Below, piece by piece: positions 8,360-29,959 of a stretch of DNA of 52,936 nt. A program made the position numbers and the translations under genes. Origin of the DNA: a virus. The DNA is taken from the IMG/VR virus record IMGVR_UViG_3300045988_058324; one strand, given 5' to 3'. Positions within the stretch are counted from its first letter, which is position 1. Every line of letters starts with the position of its first letter. The notes below the pieces were generated by a model that ran no database searches, was not told the DNA's origin, and worked only from the letters and a program-made list of their open reading frames with translations.

Positions 8360-8377
8360 TTTTTTTTAAATTTATTA

Positions 8378-8406
8378 TTTACATATGTATTACAATATGT
8401 TATACT
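8378..8406 (+). promoter_or_regulatory. Sigma-70-type promoter with extended -10 (conserved cassette, subfamily ii)
   Basis: TTTACA, 17 bp ending TGT, TATACT. Preceded by a T/A-rich UP-like tract and followed by the conserved CATAAGTTAAAGAAA. Confidence 0.65.
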
Positions 8407-12218: not shown

Positions 12219-12237
12219 TTTTTTTTTAATTTTACTA

Positions 12238-12266
12238 TTTACATATGTATTACAATATGTTATACT
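12238..12266 (+). promoter_or_regulatory. Sigma-70-type promoter with extended -10 (conserved cassette, subfamily ii)
   Basis: TTTACA (12238-12243), 17 bp, TGT-TATACT (12261-12266). Nearly identical to the cassettes at 8378 and 20023. Confidence 0.65.
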
Positions 12267-12302
12267 GTATTCAGAAGTTAAAAAGAAAAGAGGTACAAAG
12301 AT

Positions 12303-12821
12303 ATGAAAATTTATGTGTCAAGAAAAGACGAAACAGTTAAGGTAAAATTAGTAGAGTACAATGAAAGATTTAATACCTATATGGTAGAATTTATCACAGG
12401 CGATAGAAAGGGTAAAACAACTTCTTTTTCAGCTTCTACAATGAAGCGGTGGTGGAAAGTGGTTGATGATTCTGAAGAAGTCATAACTAAAGAAGTTGTT
12501 AAAAAAGCCAAGACAACAAAGTCAACAGATGACATTTTAGATATGGTTGAAGAAATTTTAAAAAATTTGAGTATTGAATTTAAACGTTCTTCAAGATGTA
12601 TAAATGTATATTCAAATGGTGTAAAATTAGCTAGTATTTATAGACGAGTAGCTCGTGTGAGAATCTATATGAAAGTTAGTTTATTTACAAAGTTAGATGT
12701 TGATAGTGCTATATTTAAGTCTTCAATAATTAATGATGAAATTAATTTTTACATTGACGAAGACAACATTGATTTTTTATTAGAAAATCTTAATACTATA
12801 AGTAAGGAGTGTAAACATTAA
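12303..12821 (+). CDS. Hypothetical protein, first gene of the radical-SAM operon
   Basis: ORF track with an AGAGG RBS. No recognisable motif. ATGA-type junction with the next gene. Confidence 0.6.
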   Translation: MKIYVSRKDETVKVKLVEYNERFNTYMVEFITGDRKGKTTSFSASTMKRWWKVVDDSEEVITKEVVKKAKTTKSTDDILDMVEEILKNLSIEFKRSSRCINVYSNGVKLASIYRRVARVRIYMKVSLFTKLDVDSAIFKSSIINDEINFYIDEDNIDFLLENLNTISKECKH

Positions 12822-13960
12822 TGAATAATGACACATATAGTTGCCCAATGTTAATGACACAGCAGTTCAGGTTTTGTCCTAACCCTTTTAGAGTTGATTT
12901 ATATAAAGGTTGTGATTTTGGCTGTTTATATTGTTTTGCAAATAGTAATCAATCTGCAGGTCACGATGGTTTTGCTGTGGCAAAAATCAAAACGATTGAA
13001 AACCTATTTAAAAAAGCGTTTGAAAACTCAGGAACCAGTAATAATCTAACTGTTGAATTATTAAGGCATAAAGTCCCACTACATTGTGGAGGTATGTCTG
13101 ACCCATTTCAAACCAGAGAATGGAATCTTCACTTGACCAAACAGTTAATTGATTTAAGTAACAAGTATGAATATCCGATTTCATTTAGCACTAAGACAGC
13201 ACATTTACCTGATGAATATTTTGAAATATTAAACCCAAAACTTCACGCATTCCAAGTGTCAATTATGGGCTGGGACGATGAATATATTAGGAAATATGAG
13301 ACCAATACACCTACTGCTAAAGAACGCTTGAATTTCGTTAAAAAGTTACGAGATAAAGGATTTTGGTGCAGTATAAGAATTCAACCGTGTATAGACATAG
13401 AGCAGGCAAAAAAACTTGTCATACACGCAGGTAATATTCCTAGTTATATTACTGTTGAGCATTTAAAGATACCGAATGATAATACAGAAATAAAAAATTT
13501 ATTTAGAGAAGAATACCAAAGTAGTAATTTCTATAAATCTACTAATAATATGCGTAATATAGAAATGTATCCTACTGTTAAAGAAGATAATATCAAGATT
13601 CTAAAGGAAATAGCTAATGCTAACGGTGTATTGATTGGTTGTGGTGATAATGATTTACACCACTTATCACAGAGTAGGTGTTGCTGTGGTATAGATTTAG
13701 CAGGAGAAGCCTTCAGCAATTATTTAAAATACAATTTGACTTATATGGTGACAGGTGAATGTGAACCTTCGGAGCTTTGGTGTCCAAAATGTAATTGCAG
13801 GGATATATTTAATTCTCAGGTGCATAAAGGTCAAAAAGAACTTGATTATAAGGATATGGTAAACGAATATCTTAATAAGAATGAAAAATTAGTTTTAAAT
13901 TCTGAACACCCTGAGATTTCAAAGAAAATATTTGGTGTTTCAAGAAAGAAGTTATTTTAA
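12821..13960 (+). CDS. Radical SAM enzyme, SplB / DNA-repair-photolyase (COG1533)-like
   Basis: NPFRVDLYKGCDFGCLYCFA carries the CX3CX2C cluster in the context typical of the spore-photoproduct-lyase-like clade. Extra Cys clusters RCCCG and CPKCNC lie near the C-terminus. Confidence 0.75.
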   Translation: MNNDTYSCPMLMTQQFRFCPNPFRVDLYKGCDFGCLYCFANSNQSAGHDGFAVAKIKTIENLFKKAFENSGTSNNLTVELLRHKVPLHCGGMSDPFQTREWNLHLTKQLIDLSNKYEYPISFSTKTAHLPDEYFEILNPKLHAFQVSIMGWDDEYIRKYETNTPTAKERLNFVKKLRDKGFWCSIRIQPCIDIEQAKKLVIHAGNIPSYITVEHLKIPNDNTEIKNLFREEYQSSNFYKSTNNMRNIEMYPTVKEDNIKILKEIANANGVLIGCGDNDLHHLSQSRCCCGIDLAGEAFSNYLKYNLTYMVTGECEPSELWCPKCNCRDIFNSQVHKGQKELDYKDMVNEYLNKNEKLVLNSEHPEISKKIFGVSRKKLF

Positions 13961-13973
13961 GGGGGTGAATTAG

Positions 13974-14390
13974 ATGTCATTACTTAAAAGTGTAGTAAAG
14001 AAAGATTATATGGAAGGTGACACTAAATATTCTAGAAGTACATCTATACCACAGTATGAGATAAAGGGCGATAAGCCCCTCATTCAGGAATTATATAATA
14101 ATAAAAAGGTAATTGAATTACTAAGGCACATTAAGGAATCAAATGTGTCTGCGGAAGAAAAGCAATTCCTCACTATTGCAGCATATCGTCATTATGTTTT
14201 TAATTATGACAAAATAGCTGAATACTATCCACACGCAAGCAAAGAAATGCAAGAACTTATGGAAGAATCGGCACTTGTAATTATTGATATTGATAATGCA
14301 ATAAAAAATGGATATGTTAAATATAGTAAGCGTATTCAGCAGATTATTGAAGATTCCAAAAAAGCAAAGGAGGAATTTAATGAGAAGTGA
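13974..14390 (+). CDS. Hypothetical protein (138 aa) within the radical-SAM operon
   Basis: ORF track with a GGGGGTG RBS. No catalytic motif recognised. Confidence 0.6.
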   Translation: MSLLKSVVKKDYMEGDTKYSRSTSIPQYEIKGDKPLIQELYNNKKVIELLRHIKESNVSAEEKQFLTIAAYRHYVFNYDKIAEYYPHASKEMQELMEESALVIIDIDNAIKNGYVKYSKRIQQIIEDSKKAKEEFNEK

Positions 14391-15231
14391 TTTTGCCTGT
14401 TTTATCCTTTGCCACGGGAGACCAAATAATACCCCAACATTTGATACTCTACGAAAGTATGGGTACACTGGTGACATATATATAATCTGTGATGACGAGG
14501 ATAAAACATTACAGGAATATAAGAATATATATGGTGATGATATTGTAAAGGTCTTTAATAAATTAGATGTTTTGCAAAAGTTTGACACTATGGACTGCAG
14601 TGAAAATCGTGGATGTGCAGTTTACGCTAGAAATGCGTGTTTTGATATTGCAAAGGATTTAGGGATAAGATATTTTTGTGAGCTAGATGATGATTATAAA
14701 GAATTTCAATTACGATACCCTAATGAGAATAAATTAAAATTAGTTTATCCACGTAGCTTAGATGATGTATTTAGTGCTTATCTAGATTTTTATATAGAAT
14801 CTGGCGTCACAGCATTAGCTATGGCACAAGGTGGAGATTTTATTGGAGGTTTAAATGGCAATGGCTACAAAAAGAGAGTTCACAGAAAATGTATGAATAG
14901 TTGGTTTTGTGATGTCCATAAACGATTTTACTTTAATGGAAGAATGAATGATGATGTAAACACCTATGCATTGCTGGGTAGTAGAGGATACTGTTTTTTA
15001 ACCTTGGTTGATTGTATGATAAATCAGCCAGACACACAGACAGTTAAAGGGGGTATGACTGATATGTACTCTGGTGAAGGCACATATGTAAAATCATTTT
15101 ACACTGTAATGTGCTGTCCATCCTTTGTAAAAGTAAATATTATGGGTGATGGTCATTATAGAATTCATCATAATATAAATCAAAATAACGCCTATCCTAA
15201 GATAATATCAGATATATATAAAAAGAAATAA
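14380..15231 (+). CDS. Putative GT-A-like nucleotide-sugar transferase (function uncertain)
   Basis: ATG 14380 after AAGGAGG (the track start 14308 overlaps the upstream gene). N-terminal FILCHGRP...IYIICDDED strand-acidic pattern and FCELDDDY, a DxD-like motif. Confidence 0.45.
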   Translation: MRSDFACFILCHGRPNNTPTFDTLRKYGYTGDIYIICDDEDKTLQEYKNIYGDDIVKVFNKLDVLQKFDTMDCSENRGCAVYARNACFDIAKDLGIRYFCELDDDYKEFQLRYPNENKLKLVYPRSLDDVFSAYLDFYIESGVTALAMAQGGDFIGGLNGNGYKKRVHRKCMNSWFCDVHKRFYFNGRMNDDVNTYALLGSRGYCFLTLVDCMINQPDTQTVKGGMTDMYSGEGTYVKSFYTVMCCPSFVKVNIMGDGHYRIHHNINQNNAYPKIISDIYKKK

Positions 15232-15260
15232 AATTATAAAAATTTTAAGGAGGAAATAAA

Positions 15261-16352
15261 ATGAAATTAGCAACTCAAAGATTTAAAGAAGCAGTAAACA
15301 AAGCAACTAAAGGAGCATCCTTTAATAATTTAATTCCTATAACAGGAATGTTAGGTATTAAATTATCCGATGGAAAGTTGAGATTGCTTACAACAGATAT
15401 GACTAATACAATGTGTATTATCATTGACAAGGTGGCGGGAGACGATATGGACATTACAGTAGATGCAGATAAGTTTGGAAAGTTGATTGCAAAAACAACT
15501 TCTGAAGATATTGACTTATCTGTGAAGGATGATGTACTTTCTGTCAGAGGAAATGGGACTTATAAGATTCCATTGATTTCCGATGAAGATGGTCTTGTAT
15601 CTTTCCCTGATATTAGAAGCAATACATCCGAGACAGAAGATTGGTCAACAGTTAAGTTATCAAGCATAATGCAGGCTTATAATATTAATAAGTCAGCACT
15701 AGCTAAAACCTTAGAGAATCCAGCTCTTACAGGTTATTATTGTGATGATAAGGTAATCACTACAGATGCCAATGTTATTACATTTAATAATTTCAGAATG
15801 TTCACAGAAGAATTTGGTCCATTATTAATTTCAGCTCAACAGATGCAGTTATTAACATTATATAAGGAAGAAGATATTAAGGTTACAGTTGACCAAGAAA
15901 CAATCATATTCGCTACAGAATCACAGGTAGTTGAAGGAAGCCTTATGGAAGGAATTGAAGATTTTCCAGTGGAAGAAATTGGAGCATATTTAGATGTTGC
16001 TTTCACTTCATCTTGTAAGGTGCCTAAGGAATTACTCTTATCCGTATTAGATAGATTATCCTTATTCATAGAACCTTATGATAAGAATGGAGCTTATTTC
16101 ACTTTCGGTAGAAAGGGAATAAATATTCATAGTAAGAAAGATGCATCAACAGAGACTATTAACTATGTTGAAAGTAAGGACTTTGAACCTTTTGTTTGTT
16201 GTGTGGATATCCCAATGTTGAAAGAACAGTTACAGGCGTACCCAGAGGAAACAGTCAAGCTCTGGTATGGAAATGAAAATGCCTTGAAGCTGGAATGTGG
16301 AAAGGTCATTCAGGTCATTGCTCTATTAGAAGATGAAGGTCTTGCCAATTAA
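15261..16352 (+). CDS. dnaN: DNA polymerase III beta-type sliding clamp
   Basis: 363 aa. N-terminal pattern ...IPITGMLGIKLSDGKLRLLTTDMTNTM resembles DnaN (PIL..vll...dg.L.l.aTD). The genome also encodes tau/gamma, delta' and delta homologs. Confidence 0.7.
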   Translation: MKLATQRFKEAVNKATKGASFNNLIPITGMLGIKLSDGKLRLLTTDMTNTMCIIIDKVAGDDMDITVDADKFGKLIAKTTSEDIDLSVKDDVLSVRGNGTYKIPLISDEDGLVSFPDIRSNTSETEDWSTVKLSSIMQAYNINKSALAKTLENPALTGYYCDDKVITTDANVITFNNFRMFTEEFGPLLISAQQMQLLTLYKEEDIKVTVDQETIIFATESQVVEGSLMEGIEDFPVEEIGAYLDVAFTSSCKVPKELLLSVLDRLSLFIEPYDKNGAYFTFGRKGINIHSKKDASTETINYVESKDFEPFVCCVDIPMLKEQLQAYPEETVKLWYGNENALKLECGKVIQVIALLEDEGLAN

Positions 16353-16420
16353 TATAAGGATATGCTATAATATGAATTGACAAAGATTACCATTTGTTTA
16401 AATACTTTAACTTTTCTTGG

Positions 16421-16455
16421 ATAGGACCTCATTTTTAATGGGGTCCTATTTTTTA
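16421..16455 (+). terminator. Rho-independent terminator
   Basis: ATAGGACCTC-loop-GGGGTCCTAT (10-bp stem with one G-U) followed by TTTTTT. Confidence 0.8.
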
Positions 16456-16474
16456 ATTTTTTTTAATTTTACTA

Positions 16475-16503
16475 TTTACATATTGTAATACATATGTTAT
16501 AAT
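16475..16503 (+). promoter_or_regulatory. Sigma-70-type promoter (cassette subfamily ii, spacer core inverted)
   Basis: TTTACA, 17 bp, TATAAT. The 20-bp ACATATTGTAATACATATGT (16478-16497) is the exact reverse complement of the segment in the other three copies. Confidence 0.65.
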
Positions 16504-20003: not shown

Positions 20004-20022
20004 ATTTTTTTAAATTTGTCTA

Positions 20023-20051
20023 TTTACATATGTATTACAATATGTTATACT
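20023..20051 (+). promoter_or_regulatory. Sigma-70-type promoter with extended -10 (conserved cassette, subfamily ii)
   Basis: TTTACA (20023-20028), 17 bp, TGT-TATACT (20046-20051). Confidence 0.65.
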
Positions 20052-23213: not shown

Positions 23214-23463
23214 GGATGATATTACAGAAGCCGTTCACGGATTAGATATATTCACAAAGAACTGGTGTATGAATTGTAAAGAAACAGAGGAAAAGAAAGA
23301 TTTAATTTTTAGGTGTGATGGATGTATATTTGGGTTGGAAGATGATATGTGTGCAATTAAAACATTTGCAAATACACATAAGCATAATTACCCAATGTAT
23401 GATTTCGGTAGTATGGGGGTACAGTCAATATGCAAAAATTTCCAAGAAGATGGGATAAAATAA
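23203..23463 (+). CDS. Small Cys-rich protein
   Basis: CMNCKE...CDGC...C pattern. ORF track. Confidence 0.5.
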   Translation: MGNKDDITEAVHGLDIFTKNWCMNCKETEEKKDLIFRCDGCIFGLEDDMCAIKTFANTHKHNYPMYDFGSMGVQSICKNFQEDGIK

Positions 23464-23780
23464 CGTGTATAAATTTTCTGCAACGAAAAATAATAATTAA
23501 CTGTATTCTATATTATGAACTTAACGAAAATAAGCTATCAGACAAGGAATATGATGAATTAAGCAGACAGTTGGTTGAATTACAGGTAGGTGTTGATGTT
23601 AAAAATGATACTCAATATGGCTATTGTATGTATGATTTTGACGGAAATACAGGATTTGACCTATATAGTAGATTAAATGTTAAGGATAAAACATATCTTA
23701 CGAATATAGCCCGAAATTTAGCTGGAAATAGTACCATAGTTAAACCCAAACTGAAAAAGAAGAAAGGAGGATTATTCTGA
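23430..23780 (+). CDS. Hypothetical protein (116 aa)
   Basis: ORF track. ILYYELNENKLSDKEYDELSRQLVELQ faintly recalls the Ia helix of NAD-dependent ligases, but nothing more. The start is uncertain. Confidence 0.45.
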   Translation: MQKFPRRWDKITCINFLQRKIIINCILYYELNENKLSDKEYDELSRQLVELQVGVDVKNDTQYGYCMYDFDGNTGFDLYSRLNVKDKTYLTNIARNLAGNSTIVKPKLKKKKGGLF

Positions 23781-28164: not shown

Positions 28165-28962
28165 ATGGCGATAGTAGATGACAATTTAATACTAAAACTT
28201 GAAAATTTCAGAACGAAAGTTATTCAGGTGTTGAAAGAAAAAGGCATAACTATAGATGATAACGCAAAGTTAGATGATGCTCTAGTAAAAGCTATTGATA
28301 GTATTAGCACATTACAGGGGTTAGATGACTATATTACGAATGATATTGTTGACTATATTAATCAAAAACTAACGCAATTAGGACAGTATAAATTTTATTA
28401 TATGCCTAGCATTCATAACGTGAGATGTGATGCAGTTATTAATATAGGAAAATACACTCTATATGGTTGTTCGAGTTTAAAACATTTGTACTTTCCAAAC
28501 GTAGTTAGTATAGAAGAACACGTGTTTCACACACTGGGATGTGAAAACCTTATTTTGCCAAATTTAAAGACAATGGGTACAGCTTGCTTTGTGAATACAA
28601 CCACATTAAAACGTTTAATTATTCCTAAATGTGTATCACTAACCCCGAATACCTGTTCTTCAACTGGAATATATTTGTTAGATGCAGGGAATACATCTCT
28701 TATTCCTTCATCATCATCTATGCCGAATTTGACGATATTAGTATTAAGAAATAATGTATTGACTACACTCGAAAATAGAAGTTGTATTCGGTCTATTGAA
28801 GAAATCTACGTCCCACAAGACCTAATTGAATCCTACAAGGTAGCGACAAATTGGGCGACTTATGCCGACAAATTTAAACCATTAGAGGGCAGTAAATATG
28901 AGCCTTTAAATTGGTATGAGGAAGAAGCTTGGTATAAAGAAGAAATGAAAGTATGGGAATAG
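28165..28962 (+). CDS. Leucine-rich-repeat (BspA-type) protein, paralog 1
   Basis: Repeats of the type LKHLYFPNVVSIEEHVF, ENLILPNLKTMGTACF and LKRLIIPKCVSL. Conserved tail ATNWATYADKFKPLEGSKYEPLNWYEEEAWYKEEMKVWE. Confidence 0.65.
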   Translation: MAIVDDNLILKLENFRTKVIQVLKEKGITIDDNAKLDDALVKAIDSISTLQGLDDYITNDIVDYINQKLTQLGQYKFYYMPSIHNVRCDAVINIGKYTLYGCSSLKHLYFPNVVSIEEHVFHTLGCENLILPNLKTMGTACFVNTTTLKRLIIPKCVSLTPNTCSSTGIYLLDAGNTSLIPSSSSMPNLTILVLRNNVLTTLENRSCIRSIEEIYVPQDLIESYKVATNWATYADKFKPLEGSKYEPLNWYEEEAWYKEEMKVWE

Positions 28963-28974
28963 AGGTGGTATTAA

Positions 28975-29166
28975 ATGCCAACAATAGAAAAGGCAAATAT
29001 AAAGCAATTAATAACCGATGAAATAGAAAGAATGAACGAATACACAGGCAAAAATGACACAAGCGTGCATAACGCTGTTGATAGTTTGATTAATAGCTGT
29101 AATCAAGACCTAATGTATGAAAATGTATTAGGTCAGGAAGGAGAAGCAAATGGCGGTAGTAAATGA
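28975..29166 (+). CDS. Small helical protein (63 aa)
   Basis: ORF track. Sits between the two LRR paralogs in the same position as 27774..27944. Confidence 0.5.
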   Translation: MPTIEKANIKQLITDEIERMNEYTGKNDTSVHNAVDSLINSCNQDLMYENVLGQEGEANGGSK

Positions 29167-29959
29167 CCTGTATATATTACAGTTAGACAGGATAAGAGAA
29201 AAGTTAAGAAATATACTAATGGATAAAGGCATCATTAAAGATAAAGACGCAACTCTGGAAGAATTAGTTGAAGCTGTAAAAATAACAAATGAGAAAAATA
29301 GCTTATCTAATTTACTATCTAACGAATTAGAAAGCATTACAGACGATGAAATTTTAAGGTTACGCCCTTATAGTTTGTATGGTCTTACAACGTTGACAAA
29401 AGCACATTTTGAAAATTTAACGTATATAGCACCATCAACTTTTTATAATTGTACAAGTTTAAAAAATTTATATGCCCCAAACGTAATAGAAATAGATTCA
29501 GGCTCGCCGTATTATCCGTTTAGAAATACACAAATTGAAAACCTGATTTTTCCTAAGGCACAAGTGATAAGCAGTAATGGTTATTATACTTTTCAAACTG
29601 CAAAGTTAAAAAGACTTATAATTCCAAAATTAACAATATTACCAGCCACGCCTTTTGCTAGTACAAATATGTTAGAAGTGCTAGATTCTTCAATAACTGG
29701 GTGGAATAATAAGCAGGTTAATTTAAAAACTTTGATATTTAGAAACACATCAAAGATGCCGTCATTATCATCAACTGATAACTTACAAAATATAGAAGAA
29801 ATATATTGCCTAAACCAATTCGTAGAAGAACTTAAAAAAGCTACCAATTGGTCAGTATATGCTGATAAGATTAAACCTATTGAAGGTAGCAAATACGAAA
29901 ATTTAGAGTGGTATAAAAAAGAAGAATGGTACGCCGAAGAAATGAGCGTATGGGAATAA
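29150..29959 (+). CDS. Leucine-rich-repeat (BspA-type) protein, paralog 2
   Basis: Same architecture as 28165..28962. N-terminus MAVVNDLYILQLDRIREKLRNILMDKGI and tail ATNWSVYADKIKPIEGSKYENLEWYKKEEWYAEEMSVWE. Confidence 0.65.
   Translation: MAVVNDLYILQLDRIREKLRNILMDKGIIKDKDATLEELVEAVKITNEKNSLSNLLSNELESITDDEILRLRPYSLYGLTTLTKAHFENLTYIAPSTFYNCTSLKNLYAPNVIEIDSGSPYYPFRNTQIENLIFPKAQVISSNGYYTFQTAKLKRLIIPKLTILPATPFASTNMLEVLDSSITGWNNKQVNLKTLIFRNTSKMPSLSSTDNLQNIEEIYCLNQFVEELKKATNWSVYADKIKPIEGSKYENLEWYKKEEWYAEEMSVWE

Follow-up and report, generated by a model that had tools for sequence, protein, structure and literature searches.

Do two adjacent genes in the replication region of a phage, one encoding a radical SAM enzyme and the other a putative DNA-base glycosyltransferase, correspond to successive steps of one DNA hypermodification pathway? 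The question is raised by an interval located between the genes of a family-A DNA polymerase (PolA) and of a sliding clamp, in a stretch of viral DNA of 52,936 nucleotides (the window, i.e. the whole stretch that was analysed). This DNA corresponds to a phage of about 53 kb found in gut metagenomes, whose hosts are probably Clostridia. An earlier note had proposed that a base in DNA is first activated by radical SAM chemistry and then receives a glycosyl (or other) group from the transferase.

The interval includes five tightly packed genes, all on the + strand and either overlapping or almost abutting according to ORF analysis. They encode p172, a small protein with no named family (12303-12821, 172 aa), the radical SAM protein (12821-13960, 379 aa), p138 (13974-14390, 138 aa), the transferase (14380-15231 or 14308-15231, i.e. 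283 or 307 aa depending on the start) and a sliding clamp of the DNA polymerase III beta type (15261-16352, 363 aa; PF00712; phrog_947, E=4.6e-35). The 14380 start is favoured since the homologs of the transferase are about 283 aa long. A promoter-like site (12238-12266, + strand; TTTACA-17-TATACT, extended TG) was found by consensus scan within a repeated intergenic element starting at 12224. Four copies of this element are present in the window (8364, 12224, 16461, 20009) versus 0.01 expected by chance, and it is also kept in strain-level relatives. The unit is closed by a strong intrinsic-terminator-like hairpin (16419-16451, + strand; 15-bp stem and T-run). Both signals are consensus matches, i.e. 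predicted transcription signals. The five-gene arrangement, the promoter-like site at 12238 and the terminator near 16421 are those given in the earlier note, and all were found again here. The wider gene context comprises PolA, the clamp, a Cas4-like exonuclease, RuvC and RecA.

The TAGT family was reportedly defined by Iyer et al. in 2013. The 14380 product matches its profile (Pfam PF20691; 111.6 bits, cut-off 27.5, E=6.4e-32) over residues 6-225, which correspond to profile positions 2-205 of 205, and also matches phrog_842 (PHROG, E=2.6e-66). More than 4,560 homologs of this product were found. FILCHGRP, IYIICDDED and FCELDDDY are all present in the protein; in 25 homologs, no variation was seen at H12, D38, D41 or D103-D105 and very little at R14 and Y106 (motif used for comparison: bioRxiv 10.1101/2023.12.21.572611). 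On these matches, the protein is a JGT-like, GT-A member of TAGT, a bona fide family of DNA-base glycosyltransferases. Within the family, it is one of the "solitary, distantly related" TAGTs of PMC13216743. The earlier "transferase-like" assignment is thus borne out by the profile scores and the conserved D, R and Y columns, and the profile searches that had been suggested as a check place the protein in a glycosyltransferase family and not in a non-transferase one.

The product of the gene preceding TAGT, p138, had been left as an unknown protein and can now be related to ParB. It matches positions 125-216 of the 217 of phrog_620 ("ParB-like partition protein", E=1e-8) and aligns with the C-terminal half of the ParB-like protein (gp24) of phage phi jlb1. 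No Pfam match was found; the NTP-binding N-terminal domain (PF02195) is absent, as the alignment covers only the C-terminal half of phrog_620. In 70-71 of 80 viral loci, the gene just before TAGT encodes a p138 homolog. The TAGT-adjacent partners match p138 with phmmer E-values of 1e-29 to 1e-67 in 70 loci; 38 of these partners have 216-342 aa, and such long homologs carry ParB_N (PF02195). By these alignments, p138 corresponds to a ParB-like C-terminal domain; by gene order, it is a near-obligate partner of TAGT.

The radical SAM protein carries NPFRVDLYKGCDFGCLYCFA at residues 21-40 of its 379 aa and matches PF04055 (38.9 bits, cut-off 29.5, E=1.3e-9). The three cysteines of its CX3CX2C motif (C31, C35, C38) are invariant in 25 sequences of the family. 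Two additional cysteine clusters had been pointed out: only the last two cysteines of RCCCG (C288, C289) are invariant, and CPKCNC is not conserved across the family. C19 and C89 are nearly invariant. The closest NCBIfam profiles are those of the PA0069 family (3e-16), the Rv2578c family (3e-11) and spore photoproduct lyase (SPL, 1.7e-4), all with scores far under the family cut-offs: a score of 59 bits for a cut-off of 360 was obtained with the cellular families, and the SPL profile TIGR04070 gives 20.7 bits for a cut-off of 400. The protein therefore lies outside SPL as delimited by this profile, and a profile search of PDB sequences did not reach SPL. The AF2 model of the protein (pLDDT 89.5) was compared with the PDB using Foldseek. 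The top six matches are all SPL entries (including 4fhg, 4k9r and 4fhc; E=2e-9 to 7e-8, TM 0.50-0.58), the next-best structural families being at about 1e-6. As modelled, the protein has SPL as its closest solved fold, whereas its nearest sequence profiles are those of the SplB-like PA0069/Rv2578c clade. Both results agree with the SPL-type assignment initially made.

The position that follows C38 is F39, invariant in the family, where SPL has Tyr98. Yang et al. in 2013 reportedly identified this tyrosine as the radical-relay residue of SPL (G. thermodenitrificans). C89 is located 51 residues past C38 and might correspond to the catalytic H-atom-donor cysteine of SPL (C140/C141). SPL residues are numbered by counting the motif CMGHCHYC from residue 90 (PMC8989533). 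The radical SAM family comprises 623 homologs and is essentially restricted to phages; the genomes in which members are found are gut Clostridia MAGs. Cellular homologs share 22-30% identity over the N-terminal half only, the C-terminal half with its CC motif being specific to the phage family. A tblastn search of 50,697 deposited phage records gave only three weak matches, all from uncultured faecal phages; no sequence relationship to M6 gp53 was found in this search.

The first protein of the unit, p172, has no Pfam or NCBIfam family. Alignment of the 20 homologs found delimits two domains, an invariant N-terminal one of 52 aa and a variable C-terminal one. The AF2 model (pLDDT 79) shows a weak similarity of the C-terminal domain to the DNA-binding domain of T4 MotA (Foldseek E=6e-3, TM 0.53-0.60; top six matches all MotA). 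As modelled, p172 is possibly a DNA-binding protein rather than an enzyme. It is found with and without the radical SAM gene, and with and without TAGT.

Pfam/PHROG searches of the genome, which covered almost every + strand ORF of 90 aa or more apart from obvious head, tail and portal genes, detected no ThyA, dCMP hydroxymethylase, dUTPase, dNMP kinase, DNA methyltransferase or TET/JBP. The claim that nucleotide-pool enzymes are missing is upheld at this sensitivity and extends to methyltransferases and TET/JBP. The genome thus has no route recognisable by these profiles for making a modified base before replication. Likewise, no partner that would make the TAGT acceptor (TET/JBP 5mYOX, ThyA-type hydroxymethylase/hydroxylase) was detected in the scanned window ORFs of at least 90 aa at Pfam/PHROG sensitivity; divergent 5mYOXs evading Pfam have been reported. 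Genes for a 5-hmdU kinase or an amino-acid transferase (aGPT-Pplase-type) are also absent from the scanned ORFs.

A survey of the genes in related phages had been put forward as a check on the single pathway. It does not indicate co-inheritance: equivalent slots hold both modules, the radical SAM gene only, TAGT only or neither. The relatives L122-L125 are 98% identical to the window over 12222-13965 and then again from 15242 (blastn). In these relatives, the clamp gene directly follows the radical SAM gene (order: PolA-(C5-MTase)-p172-radical SAM-clamp; identities to the window: radical SAM protein, 99-99.5%; PolA, 97%; clamp, 98%). The p138 and TAGT genes, absent from them, form an accessory insertion of 1.28 kb in the window (13966-15241). 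L287 (RecA, 100% identical; DNA, 96-98.5%) has the order PolA-151 aa protein-p138-TAGT-clamp and no radical SAM gene; its TAGT is a different allele (49% identity), hence an imperfect control. Strains whose backbone DNA is 90-98% identical thus have the radical SAM gene only (L122-L125), TAGT only (L287) or neither.

The same separation is found at greater distances. TAGTs 92% (L040) and 71% (L041) identical to that of the window belong to p172-like-p138-TAGT arrangements without a radical SAM gene in the slot (for L040, in the part of the contig that was read); the L040 contig was not recovered in the radical SAM family scan. Radical SAM proteins 87% (L035) and 79% (L036) identical to that of the window are encoded in slots where SNF2 and N6-MTase genes are found at the place of TAGT. 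Among genus-level loci spanning the full PolA-clamp slot, the radical SAM gene is present in 0 of 14 and TAGT in 1 of 14; 13 more partial slots have neither. No TAGT, p138 or p172 gene was found within 8 kb of the radical SAM gene in 34 loci of its family (0/34), and TAGT loci outside the lineage of the window have no such radical SAM gene. Other genes found in this interval are those of C5- and N6-methyltransferases, of an SNF2 helicase, of PLP enzymes and of MetK; the clamp gene is its conserved right-hand border. We consider it probable that the PolA-clamp interval is a hypervariable island of the replication operon, holding two independently acquired DNA-modification and/or anti-defence modules. 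The radical SAM and TAGT genes would be adjacent because both cassettes occupy this insertion hotspot.

No recognisable source of hydroxymethyl-pyrimidine was found in the window to account for the substrate of TAGT, and the acceptor might here be provided by the radical SAM enzyme. It would abstract H from the methyl group of thymine or 5mC in polymerised DNA, as an O2-independent substitute for TET/JBP, and TAGT with p138 would glycosylate the activated C5-methyl. This single pathway would account for the adjacency and predicted co-transcription of the two genes, an order repeated in L039 (with two GTs), and it would suit a genome in which none of the usual makers of an acceptor (5mYOX, ThyA-like enzyme, MTase) was found. 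SPL, the closest fold, acts through a thymine allyl radical. The family is found in gut Clostridia MAGs, where an O2-dependent dioxygenase presumably could not work, and a C5-MTase gene adjoins p172-radical SAM in L122-L124 and is near the radical SAM gene in L016. Other types of radical SAM genes are directly beside p138-TAGT in unrelated loci (L058, PA0069/SplB-like; L079 and L075, SPASM/twitch-type), so that a functional link is possible in some lineages. Against it, the modules are found apart from one another, both among near-isogenic strains and at some 100 further loci, no locus of the radical SAM family among the 34 has TAGT, p138 being the constant partner of the latter, and p138 plus TAGT is a discrete insertion into a general hotspot for unrelated modification genes. 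Cultured temperate phages carry ParB and TAGT, radical SAM or oxidase being absent from their annotations; in the complete genome of phi jlb1, ParB and TAGT are alone, with no oxidase, ThyA or radical SAM annotated. The relay Tyr of SPL is replaced by an invariant Phe, and no radical SAM thymine hydroxylase is known to us. The pathway initially proposed is therefore unlikely.

Repair of a radical-repairable lesion in replicating phage DNA, as by SPL and by SOS-linked cellular COG1533 proteins, is a quite unlikely role for the radical SAM enzyme. It would suit the fold of a repair enzyme, profiles (PA0069, Rv2578c) of the COG1533 "DNA repair photolyase" type and a gene located among those of PolA, the clamp, the Cas4-like exonuclease, RuvC and RecA. 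One member of the family has an intein within its cluster motif, and inteins are reported to cluster in replisome proteins (PMC4760082). Yet the gene is dispensable at the strain level and missing from most of the genus, as is typical of accessory anti-defence genes more than of repair functions, and spore photoproduct would not be expected in gut phage DNA. The Phe at the place of Tyr98 also argues against repair, as do the neighbours of the gene in other loci, which are mostly DNA methyltransferases (C5-MTase, Dam, N6/N4-MTase), together with a Mom-family protein, MetK, PLP enzymes and a PP-loop ATPase. These neighbours vary greatly from locus to locus, in keeping with independent modules; with DruA-like proteins and a dNMP kinase also among them, they are of DNA-modification or anti-defence types, in keeping with a module of that kind. 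Instead of DNA, TAGT and p138 could have a protein or some other molecule as acceptor: a source of hydroxylated base is missing from many ParB-TAGT phages, solitary TAGTs are said to lack a defined function (PMC13216743), and the eukaryotic GREB1, whose GT domain is related, O-GlcNAcylates ER-alpha (PMC7968844). This is very unlikely in view of the characterised phage TAGT members, all of which act on DNA bases, of a ParB-fold obligate partner, from a family built around DNA, and of the location of ParB-TAGT cassettes elsewhere, in DNA-replication modules or just before terminase, also a site of DNA methyltransferases.

TAGT/GT-A enzymes put a sugar on 5hmC or glucosyl-5hmC in DNA (bioRxiv 10.1101/2023.12.21.572611; PMC13216743). 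Phage ParB+5mYOX+GT-A cassettes (PMC13229309; bioRxiv 10.1101/2023.12.21.572611) share with the window the GT family PF20691 with its R...DDD...DDY motifs, an adjacent ParB-fold partner and a post-replicative setting near polymerase, clamp or terminase genes. The window genome differs by lacking 5mYOX, C5-MTase and ThyA homologs. Furthermore, its ParB-like partner is tied to the GT and not to the dioxygenase, and is a C-terminal domain only, whereas characterised ParB activators need both NTP-binding and C-terminal domains. The T2/T6 beta-glucosyl-HMC-alpha-glucosyltransferase and the trypanosome JGT, which both add sugar to a modified DNA base, have the Pfam family and GT-A fold of the window TAGT; the T-even enzymes use glucosyl-5hmC from a pre-replicative pathway that the window lacks. 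T-even phages are absent from the organism tally of a TAGT tblastn search of deposited phages (E<=1e-5).

SplB (4fhc, 4fhg), the best structural match (about 286 columns), has the same CX3CX2C radical SAM core, in which the last Cys is preceded by an aromatic residue, but shares 13% identity with the radical SAM protein of the window. The latter has in addition a C-terminal region carrying an invariant CC pair and belongs to a phage-specific, strain-variable family. The PA0069/Rv2578c families and the NCBIfam "radical SAM mobile pair" proteins A/B, the closest profiles over the N-terminal ~190 residues, are of uncharacterised function and frequently occur on mobile elements. Like the window family, they include a variant with an intein (Rv2578c-family proteins of this type have their own NCBIfam model); the window protein scores far beneath their cut-offs and its CC-motif half is found in phages only. 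M6 gp53 likewise is an SPL-like radical SAM enzyme that a phage encodes and that has been implicated in the chemistry of DNA bases after replication. PLP-dependent enzymes, as in its system, are occasional neighbours of the window family (L035, L033), whereas the 5-hmdU kinase and amino-acid transferase genes on which gp53 depends are missing from the window. The statement that such a route had not been described for phages needs qualifying, as action of an SPL-like radical SAM enzyme on modified thymine in phage DNA is already known for M6 gp53 (PMC8989533).

We infer from family and context that DNA is the substrate of either enzyme in the window phage. In the two-module reading, a single promoter would read through both modules in this strain. 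TAGT would glycosylate phage DNA once it is replicated, with a sugar taken from a host nucleotide-sugar and on an acceptor independent of the adjoining radical SAM enzyme. ParB activates DNA-modifying 5mYOX enzymes (PMC13229309); by analogy with the ParB activators of phage thymine dioxygenases on double-stranded DNA, p138 may dock or activate the GT on DNA. The second module would consist of the radical SAM gene, usually preceded by that of a small p172-type protein. The enzyme would bind a [4Fe-4S] cluster by C31/C35/C38, cleave SAM to the 5'-deoxyadenosyl radical and perform radical chemistry on nucleic acid, most likely a phage DNA base, as a stand-alone modification or repair.

A broader view, distinctly improbable at present, is that the SPL-like radical SAM family provides phages of strict anaerobes, where O2-dependent TET/JBP dioxygenases could not work, with oxygen-independent activators of C5-methyl groups (thymine or 5mC, in dsDNA). 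The activated groups would be glycosylated where ParB-CTD/TAGT is present (window, L039; with other radical SAM types, L058, L079, L075), and the radical SAM product itself would be the protective mark in strains having the radical SAM gene only. The outcome would be a hypermodification resembling base J but formed without oxygen.

Within the replication operon, the region between the genes of the DNA polymerase (PolA) and of the sliding clamp is a hypervariable island, and its content here is best read as two distinct cassettes: a radical SAM gene (rSAM) related in fold to spore photoproduct lyase (SPL), and a glycosyltransferase gene (TAGT) paired with a gene encoding a ParB-like C-terminal domain (p138). 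Five plus-strand ORFs, overlapping or nearly abutting, were called in 12303-16352: p172 (12303-12821, 172 aa), rSAM (12821-13960, 379 aa), p138 (13974-14390, 138 aa), TAGT (14380-15231, 283 aa; ATG overlapping the p138 stop) and, as fifth ORF of the unit, the clamp gene (15261-16352, 363 aa). A longer TAGT start is present at 14308; the 14380 start is supported because homologues are about 283 aa long. The consensus scan gave a promoter-like site at 12238-12266 (TTTACA-17-TATACT with an extended TG), a terminator-like hairpin at 16419-16451 (15-bp stem and T-run) and no comparable signal between them. The five packed genes, the promoter-like site, the terminator-like hairpin and the motifs quoted in the earlier note were all recovered. 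The promoter core (about 23 nt) is found in four copies in the window (8364, 12224, 16461, 20009; 0.01 expected) that include the 12238 site, so the proposed cassette promoter is a genuine repeated element. The corresponding intergenic element, TTTTAATTTTACTATTTACATAT and variants with the promoter-like site inside (8364-8386, 12224-12246, 16461-16483, 20009-20031), precedes a block of replication genes at each copy and usually follows closely on a terminator-like hairpin; it has the look of a phage-specific middle-promoter cassette.

The first gene behind one of these copies encodes p172, which has no family match. Across its 20 homologues, the 52-residue N-terminal domain is invariant and the C-terminal domain divergent. 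The model (pLDDT 79) gives weak fold matches, the top six being the DNA-binding domain of T4 MotA (E~6e-3), a hint that p172 may bind DNA. A hidden dioxygenase was ruled out: p172 has one His (C-terminal), no family match and a small two-domain fold.

The rSAM protein passes the Pfam Radical_SAM threshold. Its best NCBIfam profiles are PA0069 (3e-16) and Rv2578c (3e-11), two uncharacterised families, and more weakly SPL (1.7e-4), all far under the family cut-offs. The AlphaFold model, built with 25 homologues in the alignment, is confident (pLDDT 89.5, pTM 0.90). Its top six fold matches in the PDB are SPL throughout (E=2e-9 to 7e-8, TM 0.50-0.58, 13% identity); the enzymes next in rank (CysS, TsrM, PFL-AE) score about 100-fold worse. 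PDB sequence searches with rSAM, TAGT and the rSAM profile returned nothing meaningful, SPL being reached only through fold comparison. In SPL, the residue that follows the third cluster Cys is the radical-relay Tyr, whereas rSAM has an invariant Phe at this position. Given this replacement and a score of 20.7 against the SPL family model (cut-off 400), "SPL-like" denotes fold resemblance and not membership. Of the Cys residues, C31, C35 and C38 (CX3CX2C), C288 and C289 never vary among the 25 homologues, and C19 and C89 hardly do. Of the additional Cys clusters that had been pointed out, "RCCCG" is thus conserved in its last two Cys (C288, C289) and "CPKCNC" is not conserved.

The rSAM family has 623 detectable members (48-88% identity), most of which come from contigs of phage size. 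In 185,579 representative genomes, a scan found homologues of at least 49% identity on 4 MAG contigs only, 3 of them from gut Clostridia; the remaining matches are of the cellular COG1533 type (22-30% identity across the N-terminal half). The family is essentially phage-specific. Among deposited phage genomes, BLAST with rSAM detected no similarity beyond three uncultured faecal phages. A separate search of deposited phages for near-identical DNA gave no match. The literature search found no paper characterising the family. Members of one subgroup (P0028-P0033; L008 6001-7581), 60% identical to the window protein, carry an N-terminal GNAT acetyltransferase domain; Elp3 also pairs radical SAM and acetyltransferase, but in the opposite domain order. 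In another member (L032 1029-3122), an intein splits the cluster motif, so this 697-aa "fusion" does not carry an extra catalytic domain. NCBIfam contains a model for an intein-bearing radical SAM protein of the Rv2578c family, and the ThyX gene of L016 (5436-7115) also bears an intein, with an HNH domain.

The genes adjoining rSAM vary from locus to locus among the 34 loci compared for this gene. In other phages, neighbouring genes encode a C5-methyltransferase and ThyX (L016), an N6/N4-methyltransferase and a DruA-like protein (L024), a dNMP kinase (L023), MetK (full-length in L027, 3e-90; truncated in L002 and L038) or PLP enzymes of the D-cysteine desulfhydrase/ACC-deaminase type (L035, L033). 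In L028 (3682-5321), a Dam-type N6-adenine methyltransferase and a protein of the Mom (adenine carbamoylmethylation) family are encoded directly upstream. Outside the window's lineage, the commonest immediate neighbour is a protein weakly similar to PP-loop ATPases of the tRNA-thiolation type (TtuA/MnmA), directly upstream of rSAM in about 8 loci; in L004, L005, L006, L007, L011, L012 and L013 it is a 335-360-aa ORF (E~1e-5; DUF7411). Together with the cysteine-desulfhydrase-like PLP enzymes, it gives a hint of sulfur chemistry. No fixed partner was found: MetK, PP-loop ATPase, PLP enzymes, GNAT fusion and methyltransferases are each limited to a subset of loci. In our reading, rSAM is a stand-alone accessory enzyme with a nucleic-acid substrate. 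M6 gp53, an SPL-like phage radical SAM protein, isomerises glycinyl-thymine in phage DNA (PMC8989533). Modification of DNA bases has roughly an even chance of being the role of rSAM; action on RNA or another substrate is possible with a clearly lower probability, and repair of lesions is unlikely.

The 14380 product matches Pfam TAGT (PF20691, TET-associated glycosyltransferase) over the whole domain (E=6.4e-32) and phrog_842 (E=2.6e-66). In the alignment of homologues, the columns of the R...DDD...(E/D)DY motifs, which characterise phage GT-A enzymes and the trypanosome JGT (bioRxiv 10.1101/2023.12.21.572611), are invariant or nearly so. The earlier proposal of a GT-A-like transferase of DNA bases was thus right at the family level. 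For the 13974 product, then listed as unknown, a match was obtained to phrog_620 ("ParB-like partition protein"), confined to its C-terminal half. A p138 homologue lies directly upstream of TAGT in 70 of the 80 viral loci retrieved with the TAGT profile, or 71 when L040 is counted. Of these partners, 38 are 216-342 aa long, with the ParB N-terminal domain PF02195 in those examined for it, and 31 are short and reduced to the C-terminal domain like p138 (23 of the 31 from PolA/clamp-type phages). By analogy with phage ParB-like proteins that lack a DNA-binding domain and activate cognate thymine dioxygenases on dsDNA (2026, PMC13229309), p138 could dock or activate TAGT on DNA; the characterised activators, however, needed both NTP-binding and C-terminal domains (PMC13229309), whereas p138 has the latter only.

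The ParB-TAGT pair is a self-contained two-gene module. It also directly precedes the small terminase gene of cultured temperate phages, whose hosts include Lactobacillus and E. coli, for which annotated regions were examined; tblastn matches add Salmonella, Vibrio, Nocardia and Haloarcula. p138 aligns visibly with the C-terminal half of the ParB-like protein of Lactobacillus phage phi jlb1, whose complete 38-kb genome has no annotated oxygenase, thymidylate-synthase homologue or radical SAM. A 5mYOX (TET/JBP-like dioxygenase) hidden in the 1.4-kb unannotated gap upstream of its ParB gene was ruled out (ORFs of at most 73 aa). "Solitary" TAGTs were reported in 288 of 753 phage genomes and their function called undefined (2026, PMC13216743). 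The module is present in thousands of phages, including cultured phages of Lactobacillus and E. coli, many without a recognisable source of the hydroxylated base required by all characterised relatives; this implies either a new acceptor or acceptor-making activity, or glycosylation of canonical DNA. Two glycosyltransferase cassettes in the PolA-clamp slot (L059 8435-9532; L083 4441-5756) include ORFs that, judged by eye, look like sugar-nucleotide genes (UDP-galactopyranose mutase-like; nucleotidyltransferase-like, adjoining another GT-like ORF), which suggests diverse glycans.

The two modules are not co-inherited. No TAGT, p138 or p172 was found by phmmer within 8 kb of rSAM in the 34 rSAM loci, and none of the 80 TAGT loci has a member of the window's rSAM family, although a distantly related radical SAM protein of the PA0069 type is encoded in L058. 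Closer relatives carry rSAM with other genes (L035, rSAM 87% identical to that of the window: 190 aa-PLP enzyme-rSAM-DUF4406-SNF2-N6/N4 MTase; L036, rSAM 79%: p172-like-rSAM-SNF2-MTase; L038, rSAM 67%: MetK-like-rSAM), TAGT with other genes (L040, TAGT 92%: p172-like-p138-TAGT-SNF2-MTase; L041, TAGT 71%: p172-like-p138-TAGT) or both (L039, rSAM 82%: p172-like-rSAM-p138-TAGT-TAGT). L122-L125 are near-isogenic with the window (rSAM 99-99.5%, PolA 97%, clamp 98% identical) and have the order PolA-(C5 DNA methylase)-p172-rSAM-clamp. Their DNA matches the window at 98% identity until 13965 and again from 15242; p138 and TAGT are therefore a clean 1.28-kb insertion. Conversely, L287 (RecA 100%, DNA 96-98.5% identical) has PolA-151 aa-p138-TAGT-clamp and no radical SAM, its p138 and TAGT (73% and 49% identical) being a different allele. 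L288 and L290 (RecA 98%) have p172-like, N6-MTase and PLP enzyme genes instead. Among 14 genus-level loci spanning the whole interval, rSAM is present in none and TAGT in one; both are absent from another 13 loci, which cover 2.5-4.9 kb on the upstream side of the clamp. As every combination of presence and absence is seen, the slot is a hypervariable accessory island with both modules as interchangeable cargo. In the genus-level relatives L293, L297-L300, L303-L305, L309, L311 and L322, a recurrent unannotated block (about 234, 117-128, 214 and 190 aa) lies directly upstream of the clamp, in the slot that holds rSAM and TAGT in the window. The synteny SSB-PolA-x-rSAM-clamp (L002, L008, L010, L027, L029) had suggested a core replication-module gene; this was rejected on the RecA-anchored survey (0/14 complete and 0/13 partial slots).

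A CX3CX2C screen of 1,851 ORFs from the 80 TAGT loci gave 15 matches in 12 loci. A radical SAM gene directly adjoins the p138-TAGT cassette in three (L058, L075, L079); SplB-like "mobile pair" proteins are encoded 5-16 genes from TAGT in L067, L088, L106 and L118, and another radical SAM 12 genes away in L083. Other matches tested are false positives (e.g. a DnaC-like ATPase). This result is suggestive, too sparse for a claim. The proteins of L079 (5712-6692) and L075 (8658-9614) are of an unrelated SPASM/twitch type (best matches: tungsten-cofactor maturase, MoaA-like). In L079, the gene separates the p138-like gene from TAGT and is closely preceded by a 398-aa ORF that has no annotation; in L075, it immediately follows TAGT.

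The window also encodes replication and recombination proteins (SNF2 helicase, DnaC-like loader, DnaB, primase, SSB, PolA, clamp, clamp-loader subunits, Cas4-like exonuclease, RuvC-type resolvases, RecA), terminase and siphovirus-type structural proteins. No DNA methyltransferase, TET/JBP, thymidylate-synthase homologue, dUTPase or dNMP kinase was found among the scanned plus-strand ORFs of at least 90 aa; at this profile-scan sensitivity, the reported lack of nucleotide-pool enzymes stands. A few phage 5mYOXs are reported to be missed by the Pfam model (PMC13229309). Shortly ahead of the terminase genes, the window encodes two paralogous BspA-type leucine-rich-repeat proteins (28165-28962 and 29150-29959; LRR_5, E=1e-18 and 5e-13). 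An ORF of 116 aa flanked by clamp-loader subunit genes (23430-23780) matches only PF22745 (E=2.7e-14), the N-terminal NAD+-binding Ia domain of NAD-dependent DNA ligase, without the ligase catalytic domain.

Both modules are maintained singly, in strains of near-isogenic background as well as in about 100 other loci, and each must therefore work without requiring the other. A sequential pathway, in which rSAM activates a base that TAGT then glycosylates, is accordingly quite improbable in this phage, even though TAGT requires an acceptor and the usual acceptor-making enzymes were not found in the window scan. The recurrence of the order rSAM-p138-TAGT in L039 and the radical SAM genes of other types beside p138-TAGT in L058, L079 and L075 would fit such coupling, but adjacency is expected by itself inside a shared insertion hotspot. 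The phage probably infects anaerobes, where a dioxygenase that depends on O2 would serve no purpose; this too would fit a radical route. Comparative genomics nevertheless goes against the coupling proposed in the earlier note, which had the families right, and its new two-step radical-then-glycosyl route is probably wrong.

With two separate cassettes, the interest lies in the chemistry of the rSAM family, in what solitary ParB-TAGT modules use as acceptor, and in a natural strain series that could resolve both. The family is large, tightly conserved and essentially phage-only, has the fold of the DNA-acting SPL and is sited in DNA-modification islands, and is a good candidate for a new chemistry of DNA (or RNA) bases. 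The near-isogenic strains (rSAM only, TAGT only, both, neither) are a natural experiment bearing on this chemistry and on that acceptor, and their variation displays the shuffling of anti-restriction cassettes in one slot of the replication operon.
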